A DNA stretch of 47,433 bases from Marsupella aquatica (lineage: Eukaryota; Plantae; Marchantiophyta), in assembly GCA_973895155.1 (NCBI GenBank), contig OZ316896.1, positions 23,471,067-23,518,499 on the forward strand, given 5' to 3'. Position numbers and translations under genes: made by a program. Below, piece by piece: positions 4,101 through 42,754 of the stretch. How positions within the stretch are numbered: the first letter of the stretch is position 1; each line of letters starts with the position of its first letter. The notes beneath the pieces were generated by a model. That model did not search any database. It was not told the origin of the DNA and saw only the letters and a program-made list of their open reading frames with translations.

Positions 4101-4916
4101 CTCTGCTGCTCGGCTGGCTTCTTTGGTGCCGCCGACCTCGTTCTTTTTGCCGGGGTGGCTTCATCGTTGACGGCTCCCTTCCTCTTCATCTCTGCTGCCG
4201 TGGAGGTTTCTCCTAGCACCGTTGCCTGGGTCCACCTTTCCGTGCTACCCTTTAATTCCCAGTGTATGTCGTTGCAGTTCTTGATGGCCTCTCGGATGCC
4301 GACGACGCTGTCCTTGCAAAACAGAAGATCGTCGAGTTGATTGGAAGTAGGCGTCCACAGGAACTCGTCCTTGATGAGTTCGCCTCCTAAGAAAGCCGTC
4401 TTCTACAGCTCCCACAATCGAGCGAGCTCCTGCCGTTCTCGAGCTGCCCTTTCTGACTCCTCGTCCTCGTAAGTCTTGATGTACTCAGTTGCCCGTTCGA
4501 ACAGGCATCCCCAGAAATGTGCCGCTTGATTGACGTTGCTCATACCCTCCTTAGGTTGATCGTCGGTATCTACTCTCTCCCCGAGTGCTTGCCTAAGCAG
4601 CTGACAGTAGTTGGCCTCCCGTAGTCGTCTGCCTAGTTCGTGCTCGCAAATGAGCCACCATCTCCTGCAAGCGCTCCTTACCCCTCTCCTCTGCCGGTCC
4701 TTCTTCCCGTTGATCCTTCCTAGCCGCCGACGCTTAACGCGCCCTAACCCTAATCGGGTTTTCACCCTCAGCCTTACCTCCGGCCTCTGCCCGGGTTCCA
4801 TGGTTGCCCCTAATTGTTTATATTTTCCTTGTTTTGTCACTATACTAAGGTGTTCCTAGGGTGCCTTCCTGCTTTACCCACTTAACCGGCCGAGTGATTC
4901 CTGTCTAGGCATCACA
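1191..4916 (-). mobile_element. Giant LTR, intact TG end at 4916, truncated at 1191
   Basis: Minus strand starts TGTGATGCCTAG at 4916 with no PPT before it; its flank is an older diverged LTR copy; near-identical to 20736-24485. Confidence 0.9.
1202..4801 (-). pseudogene. LTR-encoded coiled-coil ORF with one nonsense change (CAG>TAG at 4403-4405)
   Basis: ORF-track pieces 4403..4840 and 1202..4219 are in frame and match 20812..24474. Confidence 0.85.
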
Positions 4917-20600: not shown

Positions 20601-20850
20601 TGTAGCAAGGATCAGGCTCAATATTTGTCAGAGAGCCAATTCAAAGTTATCACCAACACCTCCTGTCCTGATGTGTCATCTCGGAGAGGCTCTCCTAGGT
20701 CTGACCTTGTGTAATATGCCATTTTAGAGCCTCTCTGTGATGCCTAGACAGGAATCACTCGGCCGGTTAAGTGGGTAAAGCAGGAAGGCACCCTAGGAAC
20801 ACCTTAGTATAGTGACAAAACAAGGAAAATATAAACAATTAGGGGCAACC

Positions 20851-23800
20851 ATGGAACCCGGGCAGAGGCCGGAGGTAAGGCTGAGGGTGAAAACCCGATT
20901 AGGGTTAGGGCGCGTTAAGCGTCGGCGGCTAGGAAGGATCAACGGGAAGAAGGACCGGCAGAGGAGAGGGGTAAGGAGCGCTTGCAGGAGATGGTGGCTC
21001 ATTTGCGAGCACGAACTAGGCAGACGACTACGGGAGGCCAACTACTGTCAGCTGCTTAGGCAAGCACTCGGGGAGAGAGTAGATACCGACGATCAACCTA
21101 AGGAGGGTATGAGCAACGTCAATCAAGCGGCACATTTCTGGGGATGCCTGTTCGAACGGGCAACTGAGTACATCAAGACTTACGAGGACGAGGAGTCAGA
21201 AAGGGCAGCTCGAGAACGGCAGGAGCTCGCTCGATTGTGGGAGCTGCAGAAGACGGCTTTCTTAGGAGGCGAACTCATCAAGGACGAGTTCCTGTGGACG
21301 CCTACTTCCAATCAACTCGACGATCTTCTGTTTTGCAAGGACAGCGTCGTCGGCATCCGAGAGGCCATCAAGAACTGCAACGACATACACTGGGAATTAA
21401 AGGGTAGCACGGAAAGGTGGACCCAGGCAACGGTGCTAGGAGAAACCTCCACGGCAGCAGAGATGAAGAGGAAGGGAGCCGTCAACGATGAAGCCACCCC
21501 GGCAAAAAGAACGAGGTCGGCGGCACCAAAGAAGCCAGCCGAGCAGCAGAGCAGGAGGCAGGGAGAAGCCGAAGAGGAGGAGGTCGATCCCATCAAGGCC
21601 ATTCCAACCAGGGATGACACCTGGAAGGGCTGGGCGGCAACCCTACCGGTGGAGGTGCAACTACATTTTGCACGGGAGGAGGATGCATGCTTTACGGCCA
21701 TGCAGACCAAGAAGTACCAAGGCTTCATGGCCGGATCCGGCTTGGAGGCCTTTGTAAGATTACCATGGCTGAAGCCGGAGGTACCGGAGTCAGACCTATT
21801 AGAATTCGTGGGGTCATGGGAACCCGAGACCAATTGCACGAGGATATATGGGAAGGATTTCTATCTTACTCCCAAGGTGATTGCCGAAGTGTTTGGCTTG
21901 CCGATGGGCAATAAGACCAAAGTTGATACCAGGAAGACCTTGCCTGACAAGGAGTTCCGGTCGTTCCCCGGGCCATCAACGAAGAATGGCTTCTTCCGGA
22001 ACACCTGCACCAACCCGCACATAGGAGAGATGATCGACTTCTTGCGGGTGACCATGCATTGTAACTTGCCGAGGGCAGAGATCGGCAAGGCACAGGTCTA
22101 TCTGGCAGAAAGGCCAGACCCAAGCCGGGACTACAACGGGTACCTCCTCAACCAATTGAAGAAGATCTTAAAGGAGGAGCAGCAGGTAATTGGCATGGGG
22201 AGCGTGTCGCGGCTTGGCTATCACATGCCGCTGTTGTGCCGGTATGCCAGAGGTCAGACTTTTGCCCCGGTACTTCCCCTGCAGGTAAGGGCACCCGAGG
22301 AAGCTCCAACGCCGAGGCCGTTGGCTGAGAAGCCTCAACCACCTGTTAGTCCTACGATCGAGCAGGTGTTTAGGCCCAGGAAGGAAGACTTGCCGATGCA
22401 GCAACCAGGCATGCAGAGTCTGCTGAAACTACTGGAGAAAGAAAAGAAATCGGCATCGGCAACAACAACGGCAACGGCAACAATGCAGGACACTACTACA
22501 GAGGTAGGCCTACACCAGCTCACAAGAGAAAACCCCTTTGCTGGAGACAAGGAGAGAATCAGGCCGGAATCCAAGCCAGGTGTTCGAATGTACGTGGGAA
22601 CCTCAAGCTCCGAATCTGAGGCAGAATTGCCTGAAGCTCCTACCGAGGAAGAGGAGAGGGAGAAGCCGGAAATCCAAGAGGTAGAGGAGGCAGTGGAGGA
22701 CTGCAGCCATGATAATTCCGGCTATGGGTCGGACCATCACGTTCCAGGAGTAAGGACCTGTGGCCGGTTTGTCCCCACACTTCCAAGGGTAGTGCGAGGG
22801 GACCCCAACCAGCAGAGTAGCCCTGAGTCTCCCCCACCAGATGTTGCTCCCCCGAGCTTCGACGGCATAAAACAGACGGTGCAGGAATTTCAGGAGCGAA
22901 TCAAGCAGGAGGAAGAGGCCGCCCTGGCTAAGGAAAAGGATTTACCAGGAGGAGATTGGCCGGAGGACATCAGGCGGCTAGCCGAAAAAGGAAGCAAACC
23001 TCTAGCCACGATTGAAGAGATCCGCAGGACGGCTTGGGAGCAGAGGCCACGATGGGCGATGCCGATCACTTCTACTTACTCCACCTACGCTAAGAATAGA
23101 GCCATGGAGTATGGTGAGATGTGTGGGGAACTTGCGCTCGGCATCTTTGGAGAGGAGTTGGAGGTAGGACCCTTTTTCCATAGGGAGCAGTTGGAGAAGC
23201 ACCAATTAGAAGAAGCGGTGGCTTTAGAGAGAAGCAAGAAGGACGAGGTCATTCGGCGGCTTAGGAGGATGGGAGCCGAGATTGAAGATCTAAGGGCGGC
23301 CAAGAAAGCCCAAGATGAACTGCGGATTAAACGACATGAGCTGAACATCATGCAGGGGCAGTTGGACGCCGCGCAGGCTGATAATCAGAATATCAAGGAT
23401 AAACTGACTCAGACGCAGGAAGAGTTGGCCGACACGATCAAAGAAAGGGAAAAGTGGAAGCAAGAGCTGAAGAATACAGAGGAGGCCCACATAACAGCCA
23501 ACAGCCGGGCCATGGCGGAGACCCAAAGAAAGGAATGGGCGTTGAAAGGGGAGCTCGAGAAAATCCGCGGAGCCCTTGAGCAGAAGGAGGTCGAGTTAGG
23601 GAAATCCTATCAAGGGATTATGGCGCTGCAGCAGGAGCTTGCGTCCCTGACGGCCAGCTTCAAGGCCGACCTAAGGGAGAAGGACGAGATGCTCGAACAG
23701 ACTTACGCCAAGATGAACCAGATGGAGTCTGTCATCATTGCAGAGCTCGACAAGGAGCTAAGAGCAACCCAGGAGGAGAAGGCTACCTTGAAGAAGGAAT

Positions 23801-24474
23801 TGGAGGAAGCCCACAGGGAGCAGGAGGAGGCCAAAAACGAGCTGGAGGGGGCACGTAAGGACCTGGATGAAACCCAAGAGGAGTTGGAGGAAATCACGAG
23901 GAAGATGGAGAACCTACAGCGGCGGGCCGACAACCAAACAGAGCGGCTGAAGAAACAAGCCGCAGTATTTAAATGCTTAGCTGCAGCGGGTCCATCTCCT
24001 GTTGGGACAAACCAGTTACCAGGGGTGGTAATTGCCGAAGGACAAGCCGCGCCACCTGCACCAGTGCCGGAGGTAAGTGGGAAGGGGAAGGGACCAGCTG
24101 CCGAGCCACCAACGAAGAAGAAGCGGAAACCTTCAGGGTCAAGGAGTAATACGACTTCACAGGCCGTGGTGATCAAGGAGGTAGACCCAACACCGACCCC
24201 AGACAGGGTCACGGCTAGGGATCCAACTACCCTAGGGGAAGGGGAAGCCGAAGCCGTGAGAGTGGCTGAAGCCGAAGCCGTGAGAGTGGCTGAGGCCGAA
24301 GCCGTGGGTATTGCTGAGGCCGGTGTCGAGGCTGAAGCCGAAGGTGGACCCAGTCAGGCCGAGGGAGAGTTGACTCGGTCAAGGGCAGGTAATCTGTCAG
24401 TAGGCGGGCCAACGGCAGTGGCTGAGGAGGAAGTGTTGGGGGCGTCCATTGAGGATCCACCACCGGTGTCGTGA
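20851..24474 (+). CDS. Intact LTR-encoded protein, 1207 aa from the first ATG: plant-TE-type N-terminal domain, long coiled coil, NLS, acidic repeat tail; function unknown
   Basis: Open frame 20812..24474; ATG in GCAACCATGG context; E/K/Q/L heptad-rich region; PTKKKRKP; no clear transmembrane segment. Confidence 0.85.
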   Translation: MEPGQRPEVRLRVKTRLGLGRVKRRRLGRINGKKDRQRRGVRSACRRWWLICEHELGRRLREANYCQLLRQALGERVDTDDQPKEGMSNVNQAAHFWGCLFERATEYIKTYEDEESERAARERQELARLWELQKTAFLGGELIKDEFLWTPTSNQLDDLLFCKDSVVGIREAIKNCNDIHWELKGSTERWTQATVLGETSTAAEMKRKGAVNDEATPAKRTRSAAPKKPAEQQSRRQGEAEEEEVDPIKAIPTRDDTWKGWAATLPVEVQLHFAREEDACFTAMQTKKYQGFMAGSGLEAFVRLPWLKPEVPESDLLEFVGSWEPETNCTRIYGKDFYLTPKVIAEVFGLPMGNKTKVDTRKTLPDKEFRSFPGPSTKNGFFRNTCTNPHIGEMIDFLRVTMHCNLPRAEIGKAQVYLAERPDPSRDYNGYLLNQLKKILKEEQQVIGMGSVSRLGYHMPLLCRYARGQTFAPVLPLQVRAPEEAPTPRPLAEKPQPPVSPTIEQVFRPRKEDLPMQQPGMQSLLKLLEKEKKSASATTTATATMQDTTTEVGLHQLTRENPFAGDKERIRPESKPGVRMYVGTSSSESEAELPEAPTEEEEREKPEIQEVEEAVEDCSHDNSGYGSDHHVPGVRTCGRFVPTLPRVVRGDPNQQSSPESPPPDVAPPSFDGIKQTVQEFQERIKQEEEAALAKEKDLPGGDWPEDIRRLAEKGSKPLATIEEIRRTAWEQRPRWAMPITSTYSTYAKNRAMEYGEMCGELALGIFGEELEVGPFFHREQLEKHQLEEAVALERSKKDEVIRRLRRMGAEIEDLRAAKKAQDELRIKRHELNIMQGQLDAAQADNQNIKDKLTQTQEELADTIKEREKWKQELKNTEEAHITANSRAMAETQRKEWALKGELEKIRGALEQKEVELGKSYQGIMALQQELASLTASFKADLREKDEMLEQTYAKMNQMESVIIAELDKELRATQEEKATLKKELEEAHREQEEAKNELEGARKDLDETQEELEEITRKMENLQRRADNQTERLKKQAAVFKCLAAAGPSPVGTNQLPGVVIAEGQAAPPAPVPEVSGKGKGPAAEPPTKKKRKPSGSRSNTTSQAVVIKEVDPTPTPDRVTARDPTTLGEGEAEAVRVAEAEAVRVAEAEAVGIAEAGVEAEAEGGPSQAEGELTRSRAGNLSVGGPTAVAEEEVLGASIEDPPPVS

Positions 24475-24494
24475 CGGTGCAAGGGCGCCGTTCC

Positions 24495-24515
24495 TTTTAG
24501 GGAGGGCGGACGTGG
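24495..24515 (+). other. Internal relic PPT and putative ancestral LTR start (TTTT-AGGGAGGGCGGA-CGTGG)
   Basis: T-run plus purine tract about 20 nt after the ORF stop; CGTGG is one change from TGTGG, the inverse of the terminal CCACA; present in every copy that spans this point, including the relic. Confidence 0.55.
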
Positions 24516-24963
24516 AGGGAGGAGGCGTGAGTGGGCAGGGCGGGCACGGATCTCCACGTTTAGGATTAGGATCAGAACCAGGAGCGGCCCTGACACTTAG
24601 CTTAGTGGGATTGCGGTCCCACTGGTAGGAGCAACACTTGTGCTCCTGCCTTGCTGTACATAGGTAGATTCGGGCAAGTAGATTACTGTTAAGTAGATTA
24701 GGCTTACGATGCAAAGAATGGCGGATCCACTACCAGGATAAGTACCTGGGCAGCGGGGAGCTCAGGGCCTCTTCTTTAGCAAGTTTTTAGTTTGCACCAG
24801 CCGGGCTGGGATCAAGTAGTACGAGAAGCTCTCGGTTAGTCATACAGTGACCCTTGTGTATATTCATGTTTCCTCATGCCTAAGAGCTGAATAGAGTTGG
24901 CCTCACGGCTTAGTTCGCAGAACTTGTGTATGAGATGTACTGTTTGTATGGCAAGTGCATGGT

Positions 24964-24986
24964 ATGACTCAGTCAGAATGAGTCAT
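24964..24986 (+). promoter_or_regulatory. Inverted pair of GCN4/AP-1-type motifs (ATGACTCA-N7-TGAGTCAT) in the LTR
   Basis: Seen directly; present in the young LTR copies, degenerate in the relic. Confidence 0.4.
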
Positions 24987-25189
24987 TTTGCTATTTGTGT
25001 GTCGCATTAACTTGTGTGAAGAGTGCCCACATCAACAGAAGGAAGGAAAGTAAGCAGGGGAGTGAGAGTTGGATGTGTCGAGCTGAGAGAGGTCTTAGCG
25101 GCTTAACCAAGCCTATTGGGGATCATTCCGGCGGCGGAATCCAAACATACCTAACAAGACGGAGGGGAAGACAGGGGAAGACAGGGGAA

Positions 25190-25204
25190 GGCCTATATTA
25201 GGCC
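25190..25204 (+). promoter_or_regulatory. Putative LTR TATA box (GGCC-TATATTA-GGCC)
   Basis: TATA-like motif about 200 bp before the LTR end, after GA-rich repeats. Confidence 0.4.
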
Positions 25205-25394
25205 GGCTACGTATCTCATGACCCGATGAAGGATCTGTCCAGTATATGTGTGTAAAATGTTAATAGTAGTAGTAGAAGGTTAGCAGCGTCCCATGCCGCT
25301 AAGCCGCGGAAACGGCCTCGCCAAGCGTGAAACCGCGGGAATCGGCTTGAGCTGGGGGGTTTCTTGGGTTTAGGGAGCCATGGGACGCACCACA

Positions 25395-26422
25395 GTAATC
25401 TTACAAAGGCCTCCAAGCCGGATCCGGCCATGAAGCCTTGGTACTTCTTGGTCTGCATGGCCGTAAAGCATGCATCCTCCTCCCGTGCAAAATGTAGTTG
25501 CACCTCCACCGGTAGGGTTGCCGCCCAGCCCTTCCAGGTGTCATCCCTGGTTGGAATGGCCTTGATGGGATCGACCTCCTCCTCTTCGGCTTCTCCCTGC
25601 CTCCTGCTCTGCTGCTCGGCTGGCTTCTTTGGTGCCGCCGACCTCGTTCTTTTTGCCGGGGTGGCTTCATCGTTGACGGCTCCCTTCCTCTTCATCTCTG
25701 CTGCCGTGGAGGTTTCTCCTAGCACCGTTGCCTGGGTCCACCTTTCCGTGCTACCCTTTAATTCCCAGTGTATGTCGTTGCAGTTCTTGATGGCCTCTCG
25801 GATGCCGACGACGCTGTCTTTGCAAAACAGAAGATCGTCGAGTTGATTGGAAGTAGGCGTCCACAGGAACTCGTCCTTGATGAGTTCGCCTCCTAAGAAA
25901 GCCGTCTTCTGCAGCTCCCACAATCGAGCGAGCTCCTGCCGTTCTCGAGCTGCCCTTTCTGACTCCTCGTCCTCGTAAGTCTTGATGTACTCAGTTGCCC
26001 GTTCGAACAGGCATCCCCAGAAATGTGCCGCTTGATTGACGTTGCTCATACCCTCCTTAGGTTGATCGTCGGTATCTACTCTCTCCCCGAGTGCTTGCCT
26101 AAGCAGCTGACAGTAGTTGGCCTCCCGTAGTCGTCTGCCTAGTTCGTGCTCGCAAATGAGCCACCATCTCCTGCAAGCGCTCCTTACCCCTCTCCTCTGC
26201 CGGTCCTTCTTCCCGTTGATCCTTCCTAGCCGCCGACGCTTAACGCGCCCTAACCCTAATCGGGTTTTCACCCTCAGCCTTACCTCCGGCCTCTGCCCGG
26301 GTTCCATGGTTGCCCCTAATTGTTTATATTTTCCTTGTTTTGTCACTATACTAAGGTGTTCCTAGGGTGCCTTCCTGCTTTACCCACTTAACCGGCCGAG
26401 TGATTCCTGTCTAGGCATCACA
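25395..26422 (-). mobile_element. 3' LTR of left unit, first 1028 bp only, with the 5' part of the LTR ORF (ATG at 26307)
   Basis: Inverted match to 20736-21763. Confidence 0.9.
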
Positions 26423-26437
26423 TAGCTCCCCACTTAA
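26423..26437 (-). other. Polypurine tract TTAAGTGGGGAGCTA directly before TGTGATG
   Basis: Purine-rich run abutting the LTR TG end; absent before the flank-joined copies at 4916 and 20736. Confidence 0.75.
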
Positions 26438-29400
26438 TTGTGAAGCGTCCTCGCAAACAACTTCATCTTCGTCCATATAGTATTTCTTGAGGCGGTCATA
26501 ATGGATGCGAACTGGATATACCTCTCCCGTAATGTTGGCCAATTGCACGGAGCCATTGGGGAACATCATGGTTACTCTAAAGGGTCCTAACCAGCGAGTG
26601 TAAAGCTTTCCTGGAAACCTACTATACCTACTGTCATAAAGTAGCACAAGATCACCGGTATGAATACTAACTACTTTTAACCTTTTATCATACTGCTGCT
26701 TCATGATATTCTGTCTATATTCTACTCTCTCGGCTGAAATCATTCTCGCTTCCTCTAAAGCTTCTAACCTATATTCTCGCTCCTTTAGGCTCTCCTCCGC
26801 TGAGGCTCTTTCCTCAATTGTAACTTGAAATGTCGGTATCTCAAGTTGCGTGGGTACCAGGGCTTCTTGTCCAAAGGTTAAGAAGAAGGGTGTATGACCG
26901 GTAGTGGATTTATAGGCCAGATTGTAAGCAAAAACAGCAGCAAACAATTTATCATCCCAATCGAGTTTGTTCTGAGCTACTGTCTTGTTCAATATCTTTC
27001 CTATGATTCCGTTTGCTCGTTCTGTCAACCCGTTTGCCTTTGGATGGTAGGGAGTAGTAGGCCTATGTTTAACTAAATACTGCTCATTTAAACGACTAAT
27101 TATATCATTCAAAAAATGGGTTCCTCTATCACTAACTAATTCTAGGGGTGCTCCATACCTGGTGAAGATCTGCTCATACATGAATCTAGCCGTAGTAATT
27201 GCATCATCCTTCGTTGTTGGTCTGGCCTCTACCCATTTAGTTGCATAATCCGTAGCCAGGATTATGTACTTGTTCCGTCGAGGGTGGGTCAGTGGTTTCA
27301 GAGGTCCAATGTAATCAATACCCCACTTCTCGAATGGTGCCAGAGGTAGAATAGGGTGCAGTGGATGCCTGGTGGACGCCCTTGGTCCGCCCGCTCGTTG
27401 ACAAGGATCGCATTGTTTGATAAACTGATAGACATCTTTGTGCAAGGTGGGCCACCAGTAACCGGCATTTAATATCTTCTTAGACGTGGTTACTGGGGCA
27501 AAATGTCCTCCGGCCTCCTCTCCATGCATGGCCCGTAGGACTCGTTTTACCTCTCTCTTCTCCAAACACCTTTGAATCGTGCCGTTGATTCCATGCTTGT
27601 GCAGTATGCCTTTAATGCACTGATACTGTCTGACCTTCCGCACAAAGACTGTGGCTTGCTCTCGGCTTAATCCTGGCTGTAATCTGGAAGTGCTGAGAAA
27701 TTGTAAAATCTCAGGGTACCATGTACCAGCTATTTCCACAACGAATAGCTCCTCGTCGGGGAATCGATCATCGATGCAATCCGTGGCAGGTTTACCTGTG
27801 ATCCTTGAAAAGAAGTCGGCATTGGCATGTAACTTTCCTGGCTTGATCCTCAGCTCATAGTCAAACTCCTGTAATAGCAAAATCCATCTTGCTACTCTGC
27901 CTGTAAGGTCCGGCTTATTGACTAGGTACTTCAAACTTTCATGATCAGTATGAAAGATTACCTTGTACCCTAGTAAATAATGCCTAAACTTTTTACAAGA
28001 ATAAATGACTCCTAATGCTTCTCTTTCCGTGGTAGAGTAGTTCCGTTCGGCATCGGCAAGCTGACGGCTTGCGAAGTATATGGGATGGTCCCTTCCTTTC
28101 TCATCCAACTGACTTAGTACTGAGCCAATACAGAAGCCCGAGACATCTACAAAAACATGAAAATCTTTGTTCCAGTCCGGTGCTATCATGACTGGGGCCT
28201 CTACTAACATCTGCTTCAATTCTACCACCGCTGTGACTCGTTCGGGTGTGGGTTCGAAGTCTGCTCCTGCCTTGAGCATGTTGGTTAATGGTAAAGCTAG
28301 CTTGGCAAAATCCTTGATGAACCGGCGATAGTAACCAATGCATCCCAAGAAGGATCTTACATCCTTTATGTTCTTAGGTTGCATGATATCTAGCCATACT
28401 GCTAGCTTACCTTTGTCAATCTCAATGCCCTTCCTTGATACCTTGTGACCTAGTAGCACCCCCTCGGTTACTGCAAAAAAACATTTATCTGGGTGTAACT
28501 TGAGACCCACCTCCCTACATCTCATGAAGGTTTTCCTGAGGTATTTAGCATGTTTCGATGCCTTCCCGAATACTGCAAAGTCATCAATGAAGATTTCCAT
28601 GAACTTTCTCAAGTAATCATGAAAAATGTTCACCATTAATCGTTGGAACATAGCTGGTGCGTTGCAGAGTCCAAACGGCATACGATTGAAGACATAGATC
28701 CCCCATTCCGTGATGAAGGCCGTCTTGATTTGGTCTTCCTGCCGAATCCTGATTTGGTTATAACCAGAGTATCCATCCATGAATGAATATAGTTCATGAC
28801 TGGCTACCATGTCTAGTACCATATCAGTAACGGTAAAGGAAAATGGTCTTTTAATGTTGCTTCATTCAGCTTCCTGTAATCCTGACAAACCCGGATCTTG
28901 GGTTTACCATCGGGTCCAGCTTTCTTGGGAACTATCACAATTGGAGACACCCAGTCTGAATGCAGGACTGGAGTGATGAATCCAGCTTCCACTAGTTTGT
29001 CGATTTCTGTTTTGACCAGCAGGGAATACTTCGGGTTCATCCTTCGAATTGGTTGTCGAAATGATTTGGCTCCTAACATGAGATCAATTCGATGTTCCCC
29101 TAGTGTTGGATCTACGCCCTTTAGATCTTGGTGACTCCATGCAAACACATCCTGAAATTCAATCAATAAGTCACTGATCTCTTTCTCGAGCTCAGGTGCT
29201 AGGTTTCTCCCTAAGTTCAGTTCTCTTCCCTCTCCTAAGTCGAGCTTCCGATATTGCCGTGCTTGGATCATATTAATCTGCTTCTTCAAATTCGGGTCCA
29301 GTTCGGCTTCCAGTCTCTCTAATCTCATACCTCCATAAACTGGGATCTCGGCTGGACTAGCCGAGTCGGTCCCTTCCTTGGTGTCCATAGATTGTCCCCT

Positions 29401-29582
29401 TACCGGTCTATTCGGTTTTGAATTAGTGGTCGGCTCCCCTTCCTGCCTTGGCTCTGGATCGTGTCTGTTCATCTCATCCACCTCTTGCTCCTGAGAGTTA
29501 GGCCGCTGTGCTCTCTCGGCTTCTAATAGGGCCTCAATTTGTTCTGCCCTCGTAATCGGCTTGTATGCCGATCCCTTGGTAT

Positions 29583-31976
29583 TTAATTCCTTGCCGATGA
29601 TCGATGGCGTTGTGGACCCCGTCGGCTCTGCCACAACGCCTGCAGAAAATCCACTGTCCCTGCTACTGCTCCCCACTTAGCCGTTTCATCCAATTGGTCT
29701 ACATCCTTAACTTCCTCCGGAATTGCAGCTAAAAAGGTGGATTCTATTGTAAAGCAGTCCTCGACCTCTTCGTCTTCTTTTTCCAAGTCACCTTCCATTG
29801 GTTCTTGCCATAATCCGCTGGGGGGTACCTCTGGTCCAAAGACACCTTCTTCGGTTAGGTTAGTGAAGCATTCTAACCAACGTACCCATCTACTTCCCTT
29901 ATGCTTTTCCTACGGTCATCCTTAGTGTCCCAGGATACCGTGATAGAGGGGGTCCCGAAAGTGAACTGCTTTTTACCCCAATCTTCTATTACCTCGGCTA
30001 GGTACAGCCATGGCCTACCAATCAATAGCCGGAATGACGTAGGATTTACCGGCTTCATTACTACATAGTTAATGCTAAAGAAGATACCTCCTATCTCTGT
30101 CTTGATGCCGGTTAACACTCCCGTAGGAATGACCTGATATCCATTGGCCATGTTCAACACTCTTCCAGTCATCTCCGGTGTTAGACCCCACCCTTTTGCT
30201 GTTGAATCAATCATAATACATACCCCTGATCCTCCATCGATGGGTACCCGTAGTAATAATTCTCCTTGAATCATTAATGGTAATGCTGGGGCTCCTTGAT
30301 CTTCTTCTATCATTAGTACGTCGGATCTGGTTGCTACCTTGGGTAATCTCGGCTTGCCGAGAATAGCCTTCCTTAATTGCTTCCGGAAGTACGGGCTATT
30401 TTTCAATAGTTGACCTACTGTTGCCGAGACTCTAGATTCTAGTACATCTTTAGCCAGGTCATAGGGAACAATCGGCTTCTCTTCTGGTGGTGTTTCCGTC
30501 TTGGATTCGGCCAGTTTTGCCACGCTAGTCTCCACAGCTGTTGGGTCTTCCGAAGCAAACAATGCTTTTGCTCGTTTTACATCCTTGGCAATGGCTTCGG
30601 TATTCTCCAGGGTTTCTAATTCTCTTAGTTGTTCCTTAACACTAGCCGTAACAGAGGGGTAGAATAACTTAGGATGATCTCGATTGAAGTCGCTATCTTG
30701 TGAAGGATTGGTTTCACTGGTGGGCTCATGGCTTACCTGTATTGCCGGAGCCCTCCCTTCTCCTTCTGTTGATGTTGACGAAGAGTCGATCCTTTCCTCC
30801 GTAACCTTCCCTTTATTTTTGGCCAGCCCATCCCACCTTTCCTTCCTTCTGGTAGATCGAGTAGAGACCCGGTAGCAATCATGATCTAAATCCTCCTCTG
30901 AGAAGGTTGATAGGGCTTCGGCCTCATCATCAGATGGTACGAACTCTGCCTCGGCATCCTCTTGCCATCCTAGTTCGATGTGGTTGATTTGAACTCCTCC
31001 GGGGGTAGTACCTGGCGGTAAGATCTTGATCGGCAAAAGCTTATGATTTGCGGCCAGGCCTGCCAACCAAGTAGGACATTGCCCTAGCATATGACCTTCC
31101 TGTCGGCATCCCATACATAGCTGAGCTGGTTGTCCATCACCCTGTTTGCGTGCATTCGGGCATTCTCTAACAAAATGGCCAGGTTGACCACAATTATAGC
31201 ACGCCGCAAATCTTTGCACATTCGGCCTAGGAGGTACTGACGGGTTCTGAATAATCCGAGGATACATCTCTCCTGGATTGTTCCTTAACCCTGACCACAG
31301 AGATGCAGGTCTGTTGGATAGGTCTCGTGCTCCAGTCTCACTGATGCCGAAAACACTATCAGCGGCATCTCCCAAAAAGTACTCTACTTCTCCCTGACAT
31401 GGTCAGTTTCTGAAAGCGTTGCAAGAACTTCCTGAAGGATTTGTTCTCCTTGAACCGAAGTTGTCCCAACTTCAGCACTGCTAGTTCTGAAGTTCCAATG
31501 GGTCGAAACTCCTTAACAAAGAGTGTTTTGAAGATATCCCAGATGGCTTGATCTTCCACATCTAATGCTCTGTACCAAGGCCTAGCCTCACCCTTGAACA
31601 GGCCGGGAAGAATCTGCATCTTGATGGCCGATTCTCCATTTGCTGCAGCGGTTCCCTCGAAATCATCCAACCATTCGTCCGGATCCTCATCTCCTCTCCC
31701 ATGAAATGCCTTGTAATGTATGCGCGACCGCTGGCTCAATCTGGTCCCTGGCCTCTCGTCTGGCCGTGCCTCTGGTTCCCCCATGTCGGTTGGAGACTCA
31801 CTTCTCCTTACCGACTCTTCTTCTGGTATGTCTTCTTCGACGCCACTTCCAGTTTCGGAGCTACCAGCTCTTTCTGCCCCTCTCAGTCGCTGTGTATCAT
31901 GCCACCCGGCGAGCTGCTGCAGTCGAGCTCTCTCCTGTTGAATCACTCTTTCTTCCCTCGGCGTAAGGTCAGTCAT
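29583..31976 (-). pseudogene. gag: Gag-protease, left unit; 569-bp and 31-bp deletions
   Basis: Versus 39692-42685: junction at 31404/31405 lacks 41545-42113; 31 bp lost between CGTAC direct repeats near 29881. Confidence 0.9.
29593..29652 (-). promoter_or_regulatory. -1 ribosomal frameshift cassette (G_GAU_UUU + stem/pseudoknot), left unit
   Basis: Heptamer at 29646-29652 in gag phase, 5-nt spacer, stem GGCGUUGUGG/CCACAACGCC, loop GCCGA can pair with downstream UCGGC. Confidence 0.8.
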
Positions 31977-32023
31977 TACCTACGCTTCCGTTCTAACTTC
32001 ATATCTCACGGCTTAAGAAATGC

Positions 32024-32041
32024 CCCCTCCATCTAGCGCCA
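32024..32041 (-). other. Primer-binding site TGGCGCTAGATGGAGGGG (tRNA-Asn type)
   Basis: 4 T after the LTR CA end; about 17/18 match to the complement of plant tRNA-Asn(GUU) 3' end as I recall it. Confidence 0.8.
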
Positions 32042-32045
32042 AAAA

Positions 32046-35000
32046 TGTGGTGCGTCCCATGGCTCCCTAAACCCAAGAAACCCCCCAGCTCAAGCCGATT
32101 CCCGCAGGTTTCGTGCTTGGCGAGGCCGTTTCCACGGCTTAGCGGCATGGGACGCTGCTAACCTTCTACTACTACTATTAACATTTTACACACATATACT
32201 GGACAGATCCTTCATCGGGTCATGAGATACGTAGCCGGCCTAATATAGGCCTTCCCCTGTCTTCCCCTGTCTTCCCCTCCGTCTTGTTAGGTATGTTTGG
32301 ATTCCGCCGCCGGAATGATCCCCAATAGGCTTGGTTAAGCCGCTAAGACCTCTCTCAGCTCGACACATCCAACTCTCACTCCCCTGCTTACTTTCCTTCC
32401 TTCTGTTGATGTGGGCACTCTTCACACAAGTTAATGCGACACACAAATAGCAAAATGACTCATTCTGACTGAGTCATACCATGCACTTGCCATACAAACA
32501 GTACATCTCATACACAAGTTCTGCGAACTAAGCCGTGAGGCCAACTCTATTCAGCTCTTAGGCATGAGGAAACATGAATATACACAAGGGTCACTGTATG
32601 ACTAACCGAGAGCTTCTCGTACTACTTGATCCCAGCCCGGCTGGTGCAAACTAAAAACTTGCTAAAGAAGAGGCCCTGAGCTCCCCGCTGCCCAGGTACT
32701 TATCCTGGTAGTGGATCCGCCATTCTTTGCATCGTAAGCCTAATCTACTTAACAGTAATCTACTTGCCCGAATCTACCTATGTACAGCAAGGCAGGAGCA
32801 CAAGTGTTGCTCCTACCAGTGGGACCGCAATCCCACTAAGCTAAGTGTCAGGGCCGCTCCTGGTTCTGATCCTAATCCTAAACGTGGAGATCCGTGCCCG
32901 CCCTGCCCACTCACGCCTCCTCCCTCCACGTCCGCCCTCCCTAAAAGGAACGGCGCCCTTGCACCGTCACGACACCGGTGGTGGATCCTCAATGGACGCC
33001 CCCAACACTTCCTCCTCAGCCACTGCCGTTGGCCCGCCTACTGACAGATTACCTGCCCTTGACCGAGTCAACTCTCCCTCGGCCTGACTGGGTCCACCTT
33101 CGGCTTCAGCCTCGACACCGGCCTCAGCAATACCCACGGCTTCGGCCTCAGCCACTCTCACGGCTTCGGCTTCAGCCACTCTCACGGCTTCGGCTTCCCC
33201 TTCCCCTAGGGTAGTTGGATCCCTAGCCGTGACCCTGTCTGGGGTCGGTGTTGGGTCTACCTCCTTGATCACCACGGCCTGTGAAGTCGTATTACTCCTT
33301 GACCCTGAAGGTTTCCGCTTCTTCTTCGTTGGTGGCTCGGCAGCTGGTCCCTTCCCCTTCCCACTTACCTCCGGCACTGGTGCAGGTGGCGCGGCTTGTC
33401 CTTCGGCAATTACCACCCCTGGTAACTGGTTTGTCCCAACAGGAGATGGACCCGCTGCAGCTAAGCATTTAAATACTGCGGCTTGTTTCTTCAGCCGCTC
33501 TGTTTGGTTGTCGGCCCGCCGCTGTAGGTTCTCCATCTTCCTCGTGATTTCCTCCAACTCCTCTTGGGTTTCATCCAGGTCCTTACGTGCCCCCTCCAGC
33601 TCGTTTTTGGCCTCCTCCTGCTCCCTGTGGGCTTCCTCCAATTCCTTCTTCAAGGTAGCCTTCTCCTCCTGGGTTGCTCTTAGCTCCTTGTCGAGCTCTG
33701 CAATGATGACAGACTCCATCTGGTTCATCTTGGCGTAAGTCTGTTCGAGCATCTCGTCCTTCTCCCTTAGGTCGGCCTTGAAGCTGGCCGTCAGGGACGC
33801 AAGCTCCTGCTGCAGCGCCATAATCCCTTGATAGGATTTCCCTAACTCGACCTCCTTCTGCTCAAGGGCTCCGCGGATTTTCTCGAGCTCCCCTTTCAAC
33901 GCCCATTCCTTTCTTTGGGTCTCCGCCATGGCCCGGCTGTTGGCTGTTATGTGGGCCTCCTCTGTATTCTTCAGCTCTTGCTTCCACTTTTCCCTTTCTT
34001 TGATCGTGTCGGCCAACTCTTCCTGTGTCTGAGTCAGTTTATCCTTGATATTCTGATTATCAGCCTGCGCGGCGTCCAACTGCCCCTGCATGATGTTCAG
34101 CTCATGTCGTTTAATCCGCAGTTCATCTTGGGCTTTCTTGGCCGCCCTTAGATCTTCAATCTCGGCTCCCATCCTCCTAAGCCGCCGAATGACCTCGTCC
34201 TTCTTGCTTCTCTCTAAAGCCACCGCTTCTTCTAATTGGTGCTTCTCCAACTGTTCCCTATGGAAAAAGGGTCCTACCTCCAACTCCTCTCCAAAGATGC
34301 CGAGCGCAAGTTCCCCACACATCTCACCATACTCCATGGCTCTATTCTTAGCGTAGGTGGAGTAAGTAGAAGTGATCGGCATCGCCCATCGTGGCCTCTG
34401 CTCCCAAGCCGTCCTGCGGATCTCTTCAATCGTGGCTAGAGGCTTGCTTCCTTTTTCGGCTAGCCGCCTGATGTCCTCCGGCCAATCTCCTCCTGGTAAA
34501 TCCTTTTCCTTAGCCAGGGCGGCCTCTTCCTCCTGCTTGATTCGCTCCTGAAATTCCTGCACCGTCTGTTTTATGCCGTCGAAGCTCGGGGGAGCAACAT
34601 CTGGTGGGGGAGACTCAGGGCTACTCTGCTAGTTGGGGTCCCCTCGCACTACCCTTGGAAGTGTGGGGACAAACCGGCCACAGGTCCTTACTCCTGGAAC
34701 GTGATGGTCCGACCCATAGCCGGAATTATCATGGCTGCAGTCCTCCACTGCCTCCTCTACCTCTTGGATTTCCGGCTTCTCCCTCTCCTCTTCCTCGGTA
34801 GGAGCTTCAGGCAATTCTGCCTCAGATTCGGAGCTTGAGGTTCCCACGTACATTCGAACACCTGGCTTGGATTCCGGCCTGATTCTCTCCTTGTCTCCAG
34901 CAAAGGGGTTTTCTCTTGTGAGCCGGTGTCGGCCTACCTCTGTAGTAGTGTCCTGCATTGTTGCCGTTGCCGTTGTTGTTGCCGATGCCGATTTCTTTTC

Positions 35001-36705
35001 TTTCTCCAGTAGTTTCAGCAGACTCTGCATGCCTGGTTGCTGCATCGGCAAGTCTTCCTTCCTGGGCCTAAACACCTGCTCGATCGTAGGACTAACAGGT
35101 GGTTGAGGCTTCTCAGCCAACGGCCTCGGCGTTGGAGCTTCCTCGGGTGCCCTTACCTGCAGGGGAAGTACCGGGGCAAAAGTCTGACCTCTGGCATACC
35201 GGCACAACAGCGGCATGTGATAGCCAAGCCGCGACACGCTCCCCATGCCGATTACCTGCTGCTCCTCCTTTAAGATCTTCTTCAATTGGTTGAGGAGGTA
35301 CCCGTTGTAGTCCCGGCTTGGGTCTGGCCTTTCTGCCAGATAGACCTGTGCCTTGCCGATCTCTGCCCTCGGCAAGTTACAATGCATGGTCACCCGCAAG
35401 AAGTCGATCATCTCTCCTATGTGCGGGTTGGTGCAGGTGTTCCGGAAGAAGCCATTCTTCGTTGATGGCCCGGGGAACGACCGGAACTCCTTGTCAGGCA
35501 AGGTCTTCCTGGTATCAACTTTGGTCTTATTGCCCATCGGCAAGCCAAACACTTCGGCAATCACCTTGGGAGTAAGATAGAAATCCTTCCCATATATCCT
35601 CGTGCAATTGGTCTCGGGTTCCCATGACCCCACGAATTCTAATAGGTCCGACTCCGGTACCTCCGGCTTCAGCCATGGTAATCTTACAAAGGCCTCCAAG
35701 CCGGATCCGGCCATGAAGCCTTGGTACTTCTTGGTCTGCATGGCCGTAAAGCATGCATCCTCCTCCCGTGCAAAATGTAGTTGCACCTCCACCGGTAGGG
35801 TTGCCGCCCAGCCCTTCCAGGTGTCATCCCTGGTTGGAATGGCCTTGATGGGATCGACCTCCTCCTCTTTGGCTTCTCCCTGCCTCCTGCTCTGCTGCTC
35901 GGCTGGCTTCTTTGGTGCCGCCGACCTCGTTCTTTTTGCCGGGGTGGCTTCATCGTTGACGGCTCCCTTCCTCTTCATCTCTGCTGCCGTGGAGGTTTCT
36001 CCTAGCACCGTTGCCTGGGTCCACCTTTCCGTGCTACCCTTTAATTCCCAGTGTATGTCGTTGCAGTTCTTGATGGCCTCTCGGATGCCGACGACGCTGT
36101 CTTTGCAAAACAGAAGATCGTCGAGTTGATTGGAAGTAGGCGTCCACAGGAACTCGTCCTTGATGAGTTCGCCTCCTAAGAAAGCCGTCTTCTGCAGCTC
36201 CCACAATCGAGCGAGCTCCTGCCGTTCTCGAGCTGCCCTTTCTGACTCCTCGTCCTCGTAAGTCTTGATGTACTCAGTTGCCCGTTCGAACAGGCATCCC
36301 CAGAAATGTGCCGCTTGATTGACGTTGCTCATACCCTCCTTAGGTTGATCGTCGGTATCTACTCTCTCCCCGAGTGCTTGCCTAAGCAGCTGACAGTAGT
36401 TGGCCTCCCGTAGTCGTCTGCCTAGTTCGTGCTCGCAAATGAGCCACTATTTCCTGCAAGCGCTCCTTACCCCTCTCCTTTGCCGGTCCTTCTTCCCGTT
36501 GATCCTTCCTAGCCGCCGACGCTTAACGCGCCCTAACCCTAATCGGGTTTTCACCCTCAGCCTTACCTCCGGCCTCTGCCCGGGTTCCATGGTTGCCCCT
36601 AATTGTTTATATTTTCCTTGTTTTGTCACTATACTAAGGTGTTCCTAGGGTGCCTTCCTGCTTTACCCACTTAACCGGCCGAGTGATTCCTGTCTAGGCA
36701 TCACA
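32046..36705 (-). mobile_element. Shared middle LTR, 4660 bp
   Basis: Preceded by PPT (36706-36720), followed by PBS; TG...CA termini. Confidence 0.92.
32967..36590 (-). pseudogene. LTR-encoded ORF with two nonsense codons (36447, 34629)
   Basis: In-frame pieces of 60, 567 and 531 aa match the intact copy. Confidence 0.85.
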
Positions 36706-36720
36706 TAGCTCCCCACTTAA
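36706..36720 (-). other. Polypurine tract of right unit
   Basis: TTAAGTGGGGAGCTA abutting TGTGATG. Confidence 0.75.
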
Positions 36721-39691
36721 TTGTGAAGCGTCCTCGCGAACAACTTCATCTTCGTCCATATAGTATTTCTTGAGGCGGTCATGATGGATGCGAACTGGAT
36801 ATACCTCTCCCGTAATGTTGGCCAATTGCACGGAGCCATTGGGGAATATCATGGTTACTCTAAAGGGTCCTAACCAGCGAGTGTAAAGCTTTCCTGGAAA
36901 CCTACTATACCTACTGTCATAAAGTAGCACAAGGTCACCGGTATGAATACTAACTACTTTTAACCTTTTATCATACTGCTGCTTCATGATATTCTGTCTA
37001 TATTCTACTCTCTCGGCTGAAATCATTCTCGCTTCCTCTAAAGCTTCTAACCTATATTCTCGCTCCTTTAGGCTCTCCTCCGCTGAGGCTCTTTCCTCAA
37101 TTGTAACTTGAAATGTCGGTATCTCAAGTTGCGTGGGTACCAGGGCTTCTTGTCCAAAGGTTAAGAAGAAGGGTGTATGACCGGTAGTGGATTTATAGGC
37201 CAGATTGTAAGCAAAAACAGCAGCAAACAATTTATCATCCCAATCGAGTTTGTTCTGAGCTACCGTCTTGTTCAATATCTTTCCTATGATTCCGTTTACT
37301 CGTTCTGTCAACCCGTTTGCCTTTGGATGGTAGGGAGTAGTAGGCCTATGTTTAACTAAATACTGCTCATTTAAACGACTAATTATATCATTCAAAAAAT
37401 GGGTTCCTCTATCACTAACTAATTCTAGGGGTGCTCCATACCTGGTGAAGATCTGCTCATACATGAATCTAGCCGTAGTAATTGCATCATCCTTCGTTGT
37501 TGGTCTGGCCTCTACCCATTTAGTTGCATAATCCGTAGCCAGGATTATGTACTTGTTCCGTCGAGGGTGGGTCAGTGGTTTCAGAGGTCCAATGTAATCA
37601 ATACCCCACTTCTCGAATGGTGCCAGAGGTAGAATAGGGTGCAGTGGATGCCTGGTGGACGCCCTTGGTCCTCCCGCTCGTTGACAAGGATCGCATTGTT
37701 TGATAAACTGATAGACATCTTTGTGCAAGGTGGGCCACCAGTAACCGGCATTTAATATCTTTTTAGACGTGGTTACTGGGGCAAAATGTCCTCCGGCCTC
37801 CTCTCCATGCATGGCCCGTAGGACTTGTTTTACCTCTCTCTTCTCCAAACACCTTTGAATCGTGCCGTTGATTCCATGCTTGTGCAGTATGCCTTTAATG
37901 CACTGATACTGTCTGACCTTCCGCACAAAGACTGCGGCTTGCTCTCGGCTTAATCCTGGCTGTAATCTGGAAGTGCTGAGAAATTGTAAAATCTCAGGGT
38001 ACCATGTACCAGCTATTTCCACAACGAATAGCTCCTCGTCGGGGAATCGATCATCGATGCAATTCGTGGCAGGTTTACCTGTGATCCTTGAAAAGAAGTC
38101 GGCATTGGCATGTAACTTTCCTGGCTTGATCCTCAGCTCATAGTCAAACTCCTGTAATAGCAAAATCCATCTTGCTACTCTGCCTGTAAGGTCCGGCTTA
38201 TTGACTAGGTACTTCAAACTTTCATGATCAGTATGAAAGATTACCTTGTACCCTAGTAAATAATGCCTAAACTTTTTACAAGAATAAATGACTCCTAATG
38301 CTTCTCTTTCCGTGGTAGAGTAGTTCCGTTCGGCATCGGCAAGCTGACGGCTTGCGAAGTATATGGGATGGTCCCTTCCTTTCTCATCCAACTGACTTAG
38401 TACTGAGCCAATACAGAAGCCCGAGACATCTACAAAAACATGAAAATCTTTGTTCCAGTCCGGTGCTATCATGACTGGGGCCTCTACTAACATCTGCTTC
38501 AATTCTACCACCGCTGTGACTCGTTCGGGTGTGGGTTCGAAGTCTGCTCCTGCCTTGAGCATATTGGTTAATGGTAAAGCTAGCTTGGCAAAATCCTTGA
38601 TGAACCGGCGATAGTAACCAATGCATCCCAAGAAGGATCTTACATCCTTTATGTTCTTAGGTTGCATGATATCTAGCCATACTGCTAGCTTACCTTTGTC
38701 AATCTCAATGCCCTTCCTTGATACCTTGTGACCTAGTAGCACCCCCTCGGTTACTGCAAAAAAACATTTATCTGGGTGTAACTTGAGACCCACCTCCCTA
38801 CATCTCATGAAGGTTCCGTGATGAAGGCCGTCTTGATTTGGTCTTCCTGCCGAATCCTGATTTGGTTATAACCAGAGTATCCATCCATGAATGAATATAG
38901 TTCATGACTGGCTACCATGTCTAGTACCATATCAGTAAACGGTAAAGGAAAATGGTCTTTTAATGTTGCTTCATTCAGCTTCCTGTAATCCTGACAAACC
39001 CGGATCTTGGGTTTACCATCGGGTCCAGCTTTCTTGGGAACTATCACAATTGGAGACACCCAGTCTGAATGCAGGACTGGAGTGATGAATCCAGCTTCCA
39101 CTAGTTTATCGATTTCTGTTTTGACCAGCAGGGAATACTTCGGGTTCATCCTTCGAATTGGTTGTCGAAATGATTTGGCTCCTAACATGAGATCAATTCG
39201 ATGTTCCCCTAGTGTTGGATCTACGCCCTTTAGATCTTGGTGACTCCATGCAAACACATCCTGAAATTCAATCAATAAGTCACTGATCTCTTTCTCGAGC
39301 TCATGTGCTAGGTTTCTCCCTAAGTTCAGTTCTCTTCCCTCTCCTAAGTCGAGCTTCCGATATTGCCGTGCTTGGATCATATTAATCTGCTTCTTCAAAT
39401 TCGGGTCCAGTTCGGCTTCCAGTCTCTCTAATCTCATACCTCCATAAACTGGGATCTCGGCTGGACTAGCCGAGTCGGTCCCTTCCTTGGTGTCCATAGA
39501 TTGTCCCCTTACCGATCTATTCGGTTTTGAATTAGTGGTCGGCTCCCCTTCCTGCCTTGGCTCTGGATCGTGTCTGTCCATCTCATCCACCTCTTGCTCC
39601 TGAGAGTTAGGCCGCTGTGCTCTCTCAGCTTCTAATAGGGCCTCAATTTGTTCTGCCCTCGTAATCGGCTTGTATGCCGATCCCTTGGTAT

Positions 39692-42685: not shown

Positions 42686-42732
42686 TACCTACGCTTCCGT
42701 TCTAACTTCATATCTCACGGCTTAAGAAATGC

Positions 42733-42750
42733 CCCCTCCATCTAGCGCCA
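42733..42750 (-). other. Primer-binding site (tRNA-Asn type), right unit
   Basis: Identical to 32024-32041. Confidence 0.8.
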
Positions 42751-42754
42751 AAAA

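Follow-up and report, generated by a model that had tools for sequence, protein, structure and literature searches.

What is an ORF of 1,207 codons doing inside a long terminal repeat (LTR), and what might its product do for the element that carries it? This question is raised by a locus of Marsupella aquatica (contig OZ316896.1). The whole stretch of 47,433 nt that was analysed is called the window here, and all copy counts are restricted to it. A sequence-only reading had placed the ORF in an LTR and had seen in its product a nuclear coiled-coil factor, not an envelope protein.

The ORF lies inside the LTR

The window is full of nested copies; LTR copy C lies inside a divergent relative, Z, and copy F abuts copy C. 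The parts of the element are as follows.

1..1190, + strand: LTR copy F, 3′ end only, cut by the window edge
1191..4916, − strand: LTR copy C, 3′ truncated just past the ORF, which has one premature stop
4917..6703, + strand: relative Z, the coil and tail part of the ORF in decayed form, followed by non-coding LTR
20736..25394, + strand: LTR copy A, 4,659 bp, TG...CA, without an attached internal region
25395..26422, − strand: LTR copy E, just the first 1,028 bp; the stop codon of integrase falls 12 nt within it
26423..32045, − strand: internal region copy 1, with a deletion in gag, followed by RT, RNase H and integrase
32046..36705, − strand: LTR copy B, between the two internal regions; ORF with two premature stops
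36706..42754, − strand: internal region copy 2, with a PBS-like motif, a gag-zinc knuckle-protease ORF, a pol ORF and a PPT-like tract
42755..47159, − strand: LTR copy D, its 5′ part cut off at a fold-back junction; two premature stops in the ORF

Judged by its sequence, the element is a Ty3/gypsy LTR retrotransposon. It has direct terminal repeats (TG...CA), a PBS-like motif after the 5′ LTR and a PPT-like purine tract, short and imperfect, before the 3′ LTR. The Pfam matches are in the order gag, zf-CCHC, RVT_1, RT_RNaseH, Integrase_H2C2 and rve, while the protease was placed by sequence reading only, not by Pfam. The pol ORF of internal region copy 2 has a deletion in RT. The pol scan gave no Pfam match to a chromodomain. 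The scan detected one RNase H, in the pol ORF, and no second one there or in the remaining ORFs that it covered. An additional archaeal-type RNase H defines the Tat/Ogre/Retand clade (PMC6317226), and Tat clades lacking it have also been given (PMC10508981).

The 5′ end of the LTR occurs four times in the window, twice after two unrelated flanks and twice directly after the integrase gene. Since the repeat starts at the identical base after unrelated flanks, a layout in which a shorter LTR leaves the ORF to the internal region was ruled out. At the other end, the PBS-like TGGCGC motif adjoins the LTR twice, and relative Z, whose 3′ part shows about 75% identity, ends in CCACA, as the LTR does. 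Copy A has no target-site duplication. The LTR location and the coordinates of the ORF were borne out; the ORF fills most of copy A (20736-25394, TG/CA). In the element, its place in the LTR is directly after integrase and the PPT-like tract. As a side observation, the summed contig depth is higher for the LTR than for the internal region; such depth is not a copy number.

Of the four long copies of the ORF in the window, that of copy A alone is free of premature stops; the other three have them. When the LTR was shuffled 300 times, stop-free frames reached at most 325 codons, against the 1,207 observed.

Parts of the ORF product

The following parts were distinguished in copy A.

20830..21111, + strand: uncertain 5′ part, with TATAAA at 20830 and the next in-frame ATG at 21109 (M87)
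20851..24474, + strand: the ORF, from ATG to stop codon, sharing its sense with gag-pol
21466..21516, + strand: second cluster of basic residues, aa 206-222 (KRK, spacer, KRTR)
21613..22284, + strand: globular domain, aa 255-478, with a predicted VANC21-like fold at aa 276-474
22285..22860, + strand: Pro-rich, acidic linker, aa 479-670 (27 Pro, 34 D/E)
23221..23985, + strand: charged helical region, aa 791-1045 (0 Pro, 49 K/R, 57 D/E)
24109..24132, + strand: PTKKKRKP, NLS-like, aa 1087-1094
24151..24474, + strand: acidic tail, including a tandem repeat of 24 nt (24244-24322)
24475..25394, + strand: remaining, non-coding part of the LTR, carrying a TATA-like CTATATTA at 25193

The CTATATTA at 25193 is likely the promoter of the genomic RNA, and the ORF would therefore sit in U3.

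The basic N-terminus noticed earlier exists in composition (25 K/R against 11 D/E in aa 1-86), but its translation is doubtful. At aa 21-50 a codon-usage model favours a different frame, and there are donor-like sites (GTAAG) at 20875 and 20971 and acceptor-like sites ending at 20932, 20987 and 21059. This 5′ part may be 5′ UTR or introns instead of protein. The second basic cluster resembles a bipartite NLS. The linker, the PTKKKRKP motif and the acidic tail (22 D/E against 7 K/R in aa 1101-1207) are as first described, and relative Z keeps the coil and an RKKRKP in place of PTKKKRKP. As for the coiled coil of about 250 residues, the Pro-free charged region indeed spans 255 residues and is likely a coiled coil, but clear heptads are found only at about aa 975-1045, where 0.75 of the a/d positions are hydrophobic compared with 0.45-0.55 in the other three segments.

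Is the product a membrane protein of the envelope type, serving cell-to-cell spread? Its sense position after pol, the coiled coil and five N-x-S/T sequons would suit one. However, no hydrophobic segment was found, N-terminal or elsewhere; the top 19-residue hydropathy is 0.82, far under the membrane-helix level, so that on hydropathy the absence of a transmembrane helix was confirmed. In the protein family described below, a hydropathy of 1.8 is reached by none of the 28 long members and by 2 of all 150. A library of predicted viral structures gave no match with E ≤ 0.001. An envelope role is thus extremely improbable, as the sequence-only reading had held.

A remote protein family and purifying selection on the domain

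An orthologue, P0150, is 42% identical to the ORF product over aa 248-471 without a gap. The globular block appears to be a remote member of an unannotated family with 667 cluster representatives. A profile of 141 other proteins gave 14.4 bits for the domain and 11.5 bits for P0150, while the best of 2,000 shuffles reached 7.0; this moderate link spans aa 297-403 only. A profile-profile comparison gave a probability of 79.5 and an E-value of 1.5e-5, with a family collected by a profile that included the query. With a three-sequence profile, the domain ranked 4th of 1,002 by best-domain score, unseparated from shuffles, and with the untrimmed family profile it was barely apart from them (10.8 against 10.1 bits). 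Word-based homologue searches among proteins of up to 2,113 aa found 0 of 358 and 0 of 6,410 candidates; because P0150 exists, these blanks reflect low sensitivity. A metagenome scan with the ORF protein found no loci, and one with the family found two, too short to place the genes in or outside LTRs. An NLS-like cluster is present in 19 of the 28 long family members. Five basic columns conserved in the family are non-basic in the ORF protein (aa 333, 360, 390, 406 and 451), and the net charge of its domain is near zero (28 K/R, 26 D/E).

The sequence-only reading had suspected a plant mobile domain (PMD, PF10536) or a "putative plant transposon protein" domain (PF20167). PF10536 did not match the whole protein (E ≤ 1) or the domain (E ≤ 10), and it is absent among the best 25 of the 101 families matched by the 116 alignment members. 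Neither PF20167 nor PF03078 matched the ORF protein, whole or domain, so the second suggestion failed at the Pfam level; PF20167 was found in 2 of the 116 alignment members, at best with 17.2 bits against a cut-off of 45. There was also no Pfam match of the ORF protein to DUF1985 or PF04195. In a language-model search, the nearest named clusters were Athila ORF1 (PF03078) and PF20167, with 0.89 and 0.87 (147 and 141 shared features), scores below 0.9 being leads only. Another ORF in the window, at 11356-12195, has a related domain in surroundings without pol and scored 0.91 and 0.89 to those clusters.

Selection was assessed with family variants of the globular block. Among the 40 listed variants, 31 are synonymous (23-31% expected; p ≤ 2e-9; pN/pS about 0.1) and none is a stop. 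The + strand frame of the ORF is the sole open one of six across the block. Purifying selection on the globular domain is shown. The copies in the window differ from each other at 47 coding positions (20 synonymous, 23 replacement and 4 nonsense; p 0.03-0.07), which is near neutral. The stops in these young copies fit post-insertion decay, and gag-pol is broken in those copies too. Their differences are enriched at CG and CHG sites (21, 10 and 15 changes against 460, 525 and 1,563 sites; p 3e-6). Thus, the element is a methylation target.

Could the ORF be a passenger or a chance open frame without current function? The stops in most of the long copies and the near-neutral differences among them would be expected of it. 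The family-wide pN/pS and the gap-free orthologue stand against it, as does the coil, where comparison with relative Z gives 31 third-position changes against 18 and 15 at the other positions. This explanation is largely refuted by these sequence comparisons, and I regard it as highly unlikely.

A predicted VANC21-like fold

The domain was modelled with a pLDDT of 78 and a pTM of 0.75, while a single-sequence model failed (pLDDT 31). In the alignment behind the model, the identity to the query is 11-21% for 114 of the 116 rows. Because of this distant alignment and the single-sequence failure, the fold is that of the family and is carried to the ORF protein via the profile link. Among 48,161 chains, VANC21 came first with a Z of 8.1 (borderline by the tool's "common" scale), an rmsd of 3.7 Å and 188 aligned residues; the next chain had a Z of 2.8. 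VANC21 was also the sole chain with Z ≥ 2 among the 88 given by Foldseek, which itself scored it with an E-value of 1.2 and a TM of 0.46; the identity is 8-9%. Sequence searches of the PDB gave no matches for one query (A1), and for another (A2) VANC21 is absent among the best 60 of 101 matches, where only acidic or coiled-coil matches occur. The globular domain is thus predicted to have the VANC21 fold at aa 276-474.

A common fold of VANC and the PMD of MAIN/MAIL1 has been reported in two papers, including 10.1101/2024.09.27.615353. Hence, the PMD suggestion is supported at the level of fold and not at that of PF10536. VANC21 binds short motifs and demethylates its own transposon family (PMC5735166), MAIL/MAIN PMD proteins counter Polycomb silencing (10.1101/2024.09.27.615353), and coiled-coil pentamers have been modelled for VANC and the Athila domain (PMC13547354). 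A predicted fold in common with VANC21 shows no function, and the fold also serves silencing in MAIN/MAIL1 (PMC5418596). Words of 6 to 8 nt are not over-represented in 24475-25394 or 20736-21108, the count being reached in 30 of 200 shuffles in the best case; this test concerns exact words, and degenerate or sparse motifs could escape it.

A candidate anti-silencing protein

I propose that the ORF is a conserved accessory gene in the LTR of a Ty3/gypsy element, whose nuclear, oligomeric and DNA-binding product would counter the silencing of its own element. I give this reading a probability of about one half. It is the predicted VANC21-like fold that suggests a protein likely to aid the escape of the element from host silencing. 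The protein would be imported into the nucleus through its basic clusters, would associate with itself through the coil and would bind the element sequence-specifically by the VANC21-like domain. Copies of its own family would then lose repressive marks or gain transcriptional activation. The gene may have originated as an extra ORF in the env position, behind pol. A shift of plus-strand priming to a site upstream of the gene would have put it inside U3, so that it would be copied to both ends of the element in each cycle and would persist in solo LTRs. Such LTRs could act in trans as a source of the protein, perhaps by way of the TATAAA at 20830.

The same fold could belong to a nuclear factor, binding DNA or chromatin, that dampens its element (self-limitation or copy-number control) or compacts it, like MAIN/MAIL1 as first described. 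Transposon silencing is lost in MAIN and MAIL1 mutants (PMC5418596). The dosage of a gene retained in all solo LTRs would follow the copy number, as would suit feedback control. However, later MAIL1 work describes an indirect effect on transposons and an anti-Polycomb role (10.1101/2024.09.27.615353), and the sole protein with this fold found to be encoded by a transposable element and tested for function is an anti-silencer (PMC5735166). Such self-limitation is improbable.

A tether holding the integration complex at certain stretches of chromatin or DNA, in place of the absent chromodomain, would agree with the pol scan and with the dense nesting in the window, where the left flank of copy A ends in GAGCCTCTC, which occurs 22 times. 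However, the two unrelated left flanks match only in their last letters, GAGCCTCTC is too common to signify, nesting is normal for repeat-rich plant DNA, and the related domain at 11356-12195 has no pol around it. The tether is unlikely, if marginally less so than self-limitation. Targeting to the GAGCCTCTC repeat itself was unsupported (one of two flanks).

A role on the RNA or particle of the element (nuclear export, packaging, nucleic-acid chaperoning or import of the pre-integration complex) has been considered for extra ORFs in PMC7264820; the long coil, the basic clusters and the env-like position after pol agree with it. The structural match is, however, a double-stranded DNA-binding protein crystallised with DNA, and gag already has zinc knuckles. 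I consider this role about as improbable as self-limitation.

Recombination between LTRs, by which hosts usually disarm such elements, would spare a gene borne by the LTR. More tentatively, and with a distinctly lower likelihood, the VANC fold might be an old common anti-silencing module of plant transposons, including retrotransposons of lineages far from dicots, here LTR-borne with its own promoter. Any solo LTR that host recombination leaves would on that view be a gene complete in itself, sustaining the activity of the family in trans. The family of 667 representatives and its predicted fold also bear on the origin of VANC, whether by capture of a MAIN-like host gene or out of a transposon pool of greater age.

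Extra ORFs with related domains are already known in plant gypsy elements. In the literature I found no description of a plant ORF inside an LTR, of VANC-like retrotransposon proteins with this layout or of an anti-silencing protein of a plant LTR retrotransposon, although similar elements might be included in Additional files 1, 4 and 5 of PMC6317226. The ORF is thus a candidate for such an anti-silencer, with a predicted structural link to VANC21.

Comparison with known systems

VANC21 of VANDAL21, a Mutator-like DNA transposon of Arabidopsis (PDB 9LNJ/9LNK; DUF1985), resembles the ORF protein in its fold, as predicted over about 190 residues. Both are accessory proteins encoded by transposons and combine a folded domain with a coiled coil (PMC13547354). 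They differ in sequence (8-9% identity) and in the carrier, which is here a Ty3/gypsy LTR and not a VANDAL DNA transposon. The targets of VANC pile up as motif arrays, whereas none was detected in the LTR here. VANC has been reported as dicot-specific.

The extra ORFs of Athila (PF03078, PF20167) are, as here, sense ORFs after pol in Ty3/gypsy elements without a chromodomain. That of sunflower Athila 14 is predicted to be nuclear, and the Athila ORF "has no assigned function". However, the Athila ORFs sit in the internal region (PMC7264820), not in the LTR, and the PBS here is not that of Brassicaceae Athila. For the PMD (PF10536) of Ogre and MAIN/MAIL1, the VANC fold is reported to be common, while the ORF here has no PF10536 match. 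Gypsy-encoded PMD-A clades are described in PMC5418596. Ogre LTRs reach 6.5 kb, and the extra ORFs of Ogre lie in the internal region. The second RNase H of the Ogre/Tat clade (PMC6317226) is absent from this element.

The antisense ORFs of Retand/Grande (TRP28, PF04195; Smc-like coils) also combine a folded domain with a coiled coil, and for gene 23 of Grande nuclear localisation has been shown and an own promoter is described. In contrast to the present ORF, which lies in sense in an LTR of 4,659 bp and lacks a PF04195 match, they lie antisense between pol and a short LTR (315-1,194 bp). In animal retroviruses, MMTV sag, HIV nef and foamy virus bel have coding sequence in or extending into the LTR (U3), which is copied to both ends. 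These U3 genes encode unrelated proteins and are far shorter than the 3.6 kb of the ORF in the Marsupella LTR.

An Accessory Gene Nested in the LTR of a Ty3/gypsy Element

As listed below, the window holds several copies of a long LTR, one of which (copy A) contains a single open frame of 1,207 codons (the LTR ORF). The longest open frame in 300 shuffles of the LTR was 325 codons.

20736-25394 (+), LTR copy A
20851-24474 (+), LTR ORF
26423-47159 (-), Ty3/gypsy tandem: LTR, internal region, LTR, internal region, partial LTR
1191-4916, 32046-36705 and 42755-47159 (-), LTR copies C, B and D
4917-6703 (+), divergent LTR relative
1190/1191, 25394/25395 and 47159/47160, the three inversion junctions between LTR copies

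The 5′ end of the LTR falls on the identical base four times, after two unrelated flanks (20735 and 4917) and twice right after the integrase gene, whose stop codon lies 12 nt inside the LTR. A shared CCACA marks the 3′ end, and in two cases a PBS-like motif comes after it. Thus, the LTR is 4,659 bp long and the ORF begins 115 bp into it. The divergent relative, about 75% identical, has the same layout of coil, RKKRKP, ORF end, non-coding part, and CCACA. Judging by a TATA-like site at 25193, U3 seems to extend beyond the ORF. In the tandem, gag-protease and pol occupy separate, overlapping frames, and each internal-region copy has its own deletion. Since copy A lacks a target-site duplication and adjoins an inverted partial LTR, it is solo-like, yet within rearranged DNA. 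Two of the three inversion junctions coincide exactly with an LTR 3′ end, pointing to nested insertion or to recombination; the third folds back with no LTR termini at the join, and may have arisen in assembly.

Arrays of 41- to 54-bp repeats with a GAGAGCCTCTC core (22 core matches) were also found:

8566-9074, 14498-14839, 17320-17687 and 20282-20735, repeat arrays

They flank decayed transposase-like ORFs without a Pfam match (15098-16837) and look like the motif arrays at DNA-transposon ends.

Features and Selection of the LTR ORF

The order of the protein, proposed in the sequence-only reading, agrees with the residue composition: a basic start, a hydrophobic globular block (aa 255-478), a proline-rich and acidic linker, a charged proline-free stretch of 255 aa, PTKKKRKP (aa 1087-1094), and an acidic tail. 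In the charged stretch, the coil of that reading, heptads are clear only in the final 70 aa. Since the highest 19-residue hydropathy is only 0.82, the protein has no membrane helix, and none had been obvious in that reading; an envelope protein is thus unlikely. Residues 87-200 (21109-21450) resemble an extra folded, acidic, Trp-rich segment without a Pfam match.

The basic N-terminus may be a 5′ UTR or an intron, because, with gag-pol and the core of the LTR ORF as training set, a codon-usage model prefers frame +2 at aa 21-50 (0.35 vs -0.18 for the ORF frame) and, beginning at about aa 51, the ORF frame, TATAAA lies just 21 nt upstream of the first ATG, the first 210 nt contain two GTAAG donor-like and several acceptor-like sites, and M87 is the next ATG in frame. 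A telomere-like repeat, TTAGGGTTAGGG, lies at 20899-20910 in the LTR head, close to this candidate internal promoter.

Variants in aa 305-480 were taken from contigs of four public runs. Among the best-supported 40 of 65, 31 are synonymous (expected share, 23-31%), nine are replacements, most of them conservative, and none is a stop. The pN/pS of 0.09-0.13 across these family variants is far from the dN/dS near 1 that would have spoken against the sequence-only reading; the globular domain is under purifying selection. The antisense frame sharing the ORF's third positions scores 26/40, yet has six stops in that region. Among the variants listed, 13 more lie within the ORF, six of them synonymous, and four of the seven replacements are in the tail. 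The window's own copies differ in a near-neutral manner (20 synonymous, 23 replacement, 4 nonsense), with premature stops in copies B, C and D, as might a dead passenger, a reading that the low pN/pS makes unlikely. These differences fall preferentially at CG and CHG sites, which would agree with methylation-driven decay after insertion and with a plant host.

Protein Family and Predicted Fold

Direct homologue searches with the LTR ORF protein gave no match, and Pfam gave sub-threshold coiled-coil matches only. A second ORF, weakly similar to the globular domain (E 0.007), has two homologues and forms part of a further gene of this family:

11356-12195 (-), second ORF
10465-12195 (-), second family gene: domain, acidic linker, coil; one in-frame stop at 11356-11358

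This gene lies outside the retrotransposon of the LTR ORF, with no pol close by.

A profile of four sequences (the LTR ORF domain, the second ORF, and its two homologues) collected 667 representatives within E <= 0.001, and the best 150 of them went into the analysis. One representative, P0150, is 42% identical to the LTR ORF protein over aa 248-471 without gaps. A profile of 141 other family proteins with at least 110 domain residues, leaving out P0150 and the window sequences, gave the LTR ORF domain 14.4 bits over aa 297-403, while the best of 2,000 shuffles reached 7.0. The profile-profile probability was 79.5. The link to the family is moderate, and slightly circular because the query took part in collecting it. 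Among the best 150, 28 members have at least 400 aa; an NLS-like cluster is present in 19, a crude coiled-coil filter was passed by 13, and a membrane-like segment is found in none. The domain starts a median of 27 residues from the N-terminus in 76 members vs roughly 285 in the LTR ORF protein. In the language-model search, the neighbours come from Streptophyta and are clusters of PF20167 and Athila ORF1. The family core motif is probably typical of hypothetical proteins of liverwort, moss and fern.

The domain model, driven by distant rows of a 116-row alignment, has pLDDT 78 and pTM 0.75. The check by Foldseek proposed earlier yielded no match within E <= 0.001; VANC21 with DNA, the anti-silencing DNA-binding protein of the DNA transposon VANDAL21, came second (E 1.2, TM 0.46; 0.12-0.18 for the others among the matches listed). 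A full structural search of 48,161 chains placed VANC21 first, with a Z of 8.1, on its own borderline by the tool's note (rmsd 3.7 Å, 188 residues, 8-9% identity), and the next at 2.8; a separate structural comparison led to the same outcome. With this wide gap and a match spanning model residues 22-220, a VANC-like fold is predicted for the domain.

Proposed Role

The protein is encoded in the LTR, lacks a membrane segment, and is under purifying selection. It would enter the nucleus, oligomerise through its coil, bind its own element, and counter silencing, as VANC21 does for VANDAL21 (PMC5735166). What is removed may be a mark other than DNA methylation, because related MAIL/MAIN proteins oppose Polycomb silencing (10.1101/2024.09.27.615353). 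The main result against this anti-silencing reading is that the non-coding LTR parts have no over-represented short motif; several basic family columns being non-basic in the LTR ORF protein also counts against it. Rival roles are self-repression of the element, integration targeting, or a function on RNA or in the particle; the likeness to VANC21 may favour anti-silencing.

In a relative, ACCGGA occurs seven times in L001 1-594, 5′ of the family member that this sequence carries (0/200 shuffles reach seven; one of 21 region-by-length tests), a candidate target-motif cluster. CCGG-containing near-repeats 5′ of the window's second family gene were not significant.

Comparison with Known Systems

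Plant non-chromovirus elements often have extra ORFs (PMD in 57% of Ogre, Transposase_28 in 23% of Retand, Athila ORF-1 in 16% of Athila) and LTRs reaching about 5 kb (PMC6317226), nuclear localisation is predicted for a PF20167-bearing ORF of a sunflower Athila (PMC11728184), and VANC and MAIN share a common fold, with coiled-coil pentamers modelled for VANC and the Athila domain (PMC13547354). Thus, nuclear accessory ORFs broadly like this one are already known. Further comparisons are PMC12844716, PMC11963269, PMC10508981, PMC5418596, PMC5408684, 10.64898/2026.03.20.713144, PMC13317346, and PMC6431247. By the defining tests, the LTR ORF protein is a member of neither PF10536 nor PF20167, nor of VANC, although it is predicted to work like the last. 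The extra ORFs of plant non-chromovirus elements lie in the internal region according to a review (PMC7264820), whereas the LTR ORF lies in the LTR; a plant LTR holding such a gene was not found in the literature searched, whose coverage is thin for subscription journals. The LTR ORF is a genuine accessory gene, under selection and embedded in the LTR, and one domain of its product is predicted to resemble VANC21.
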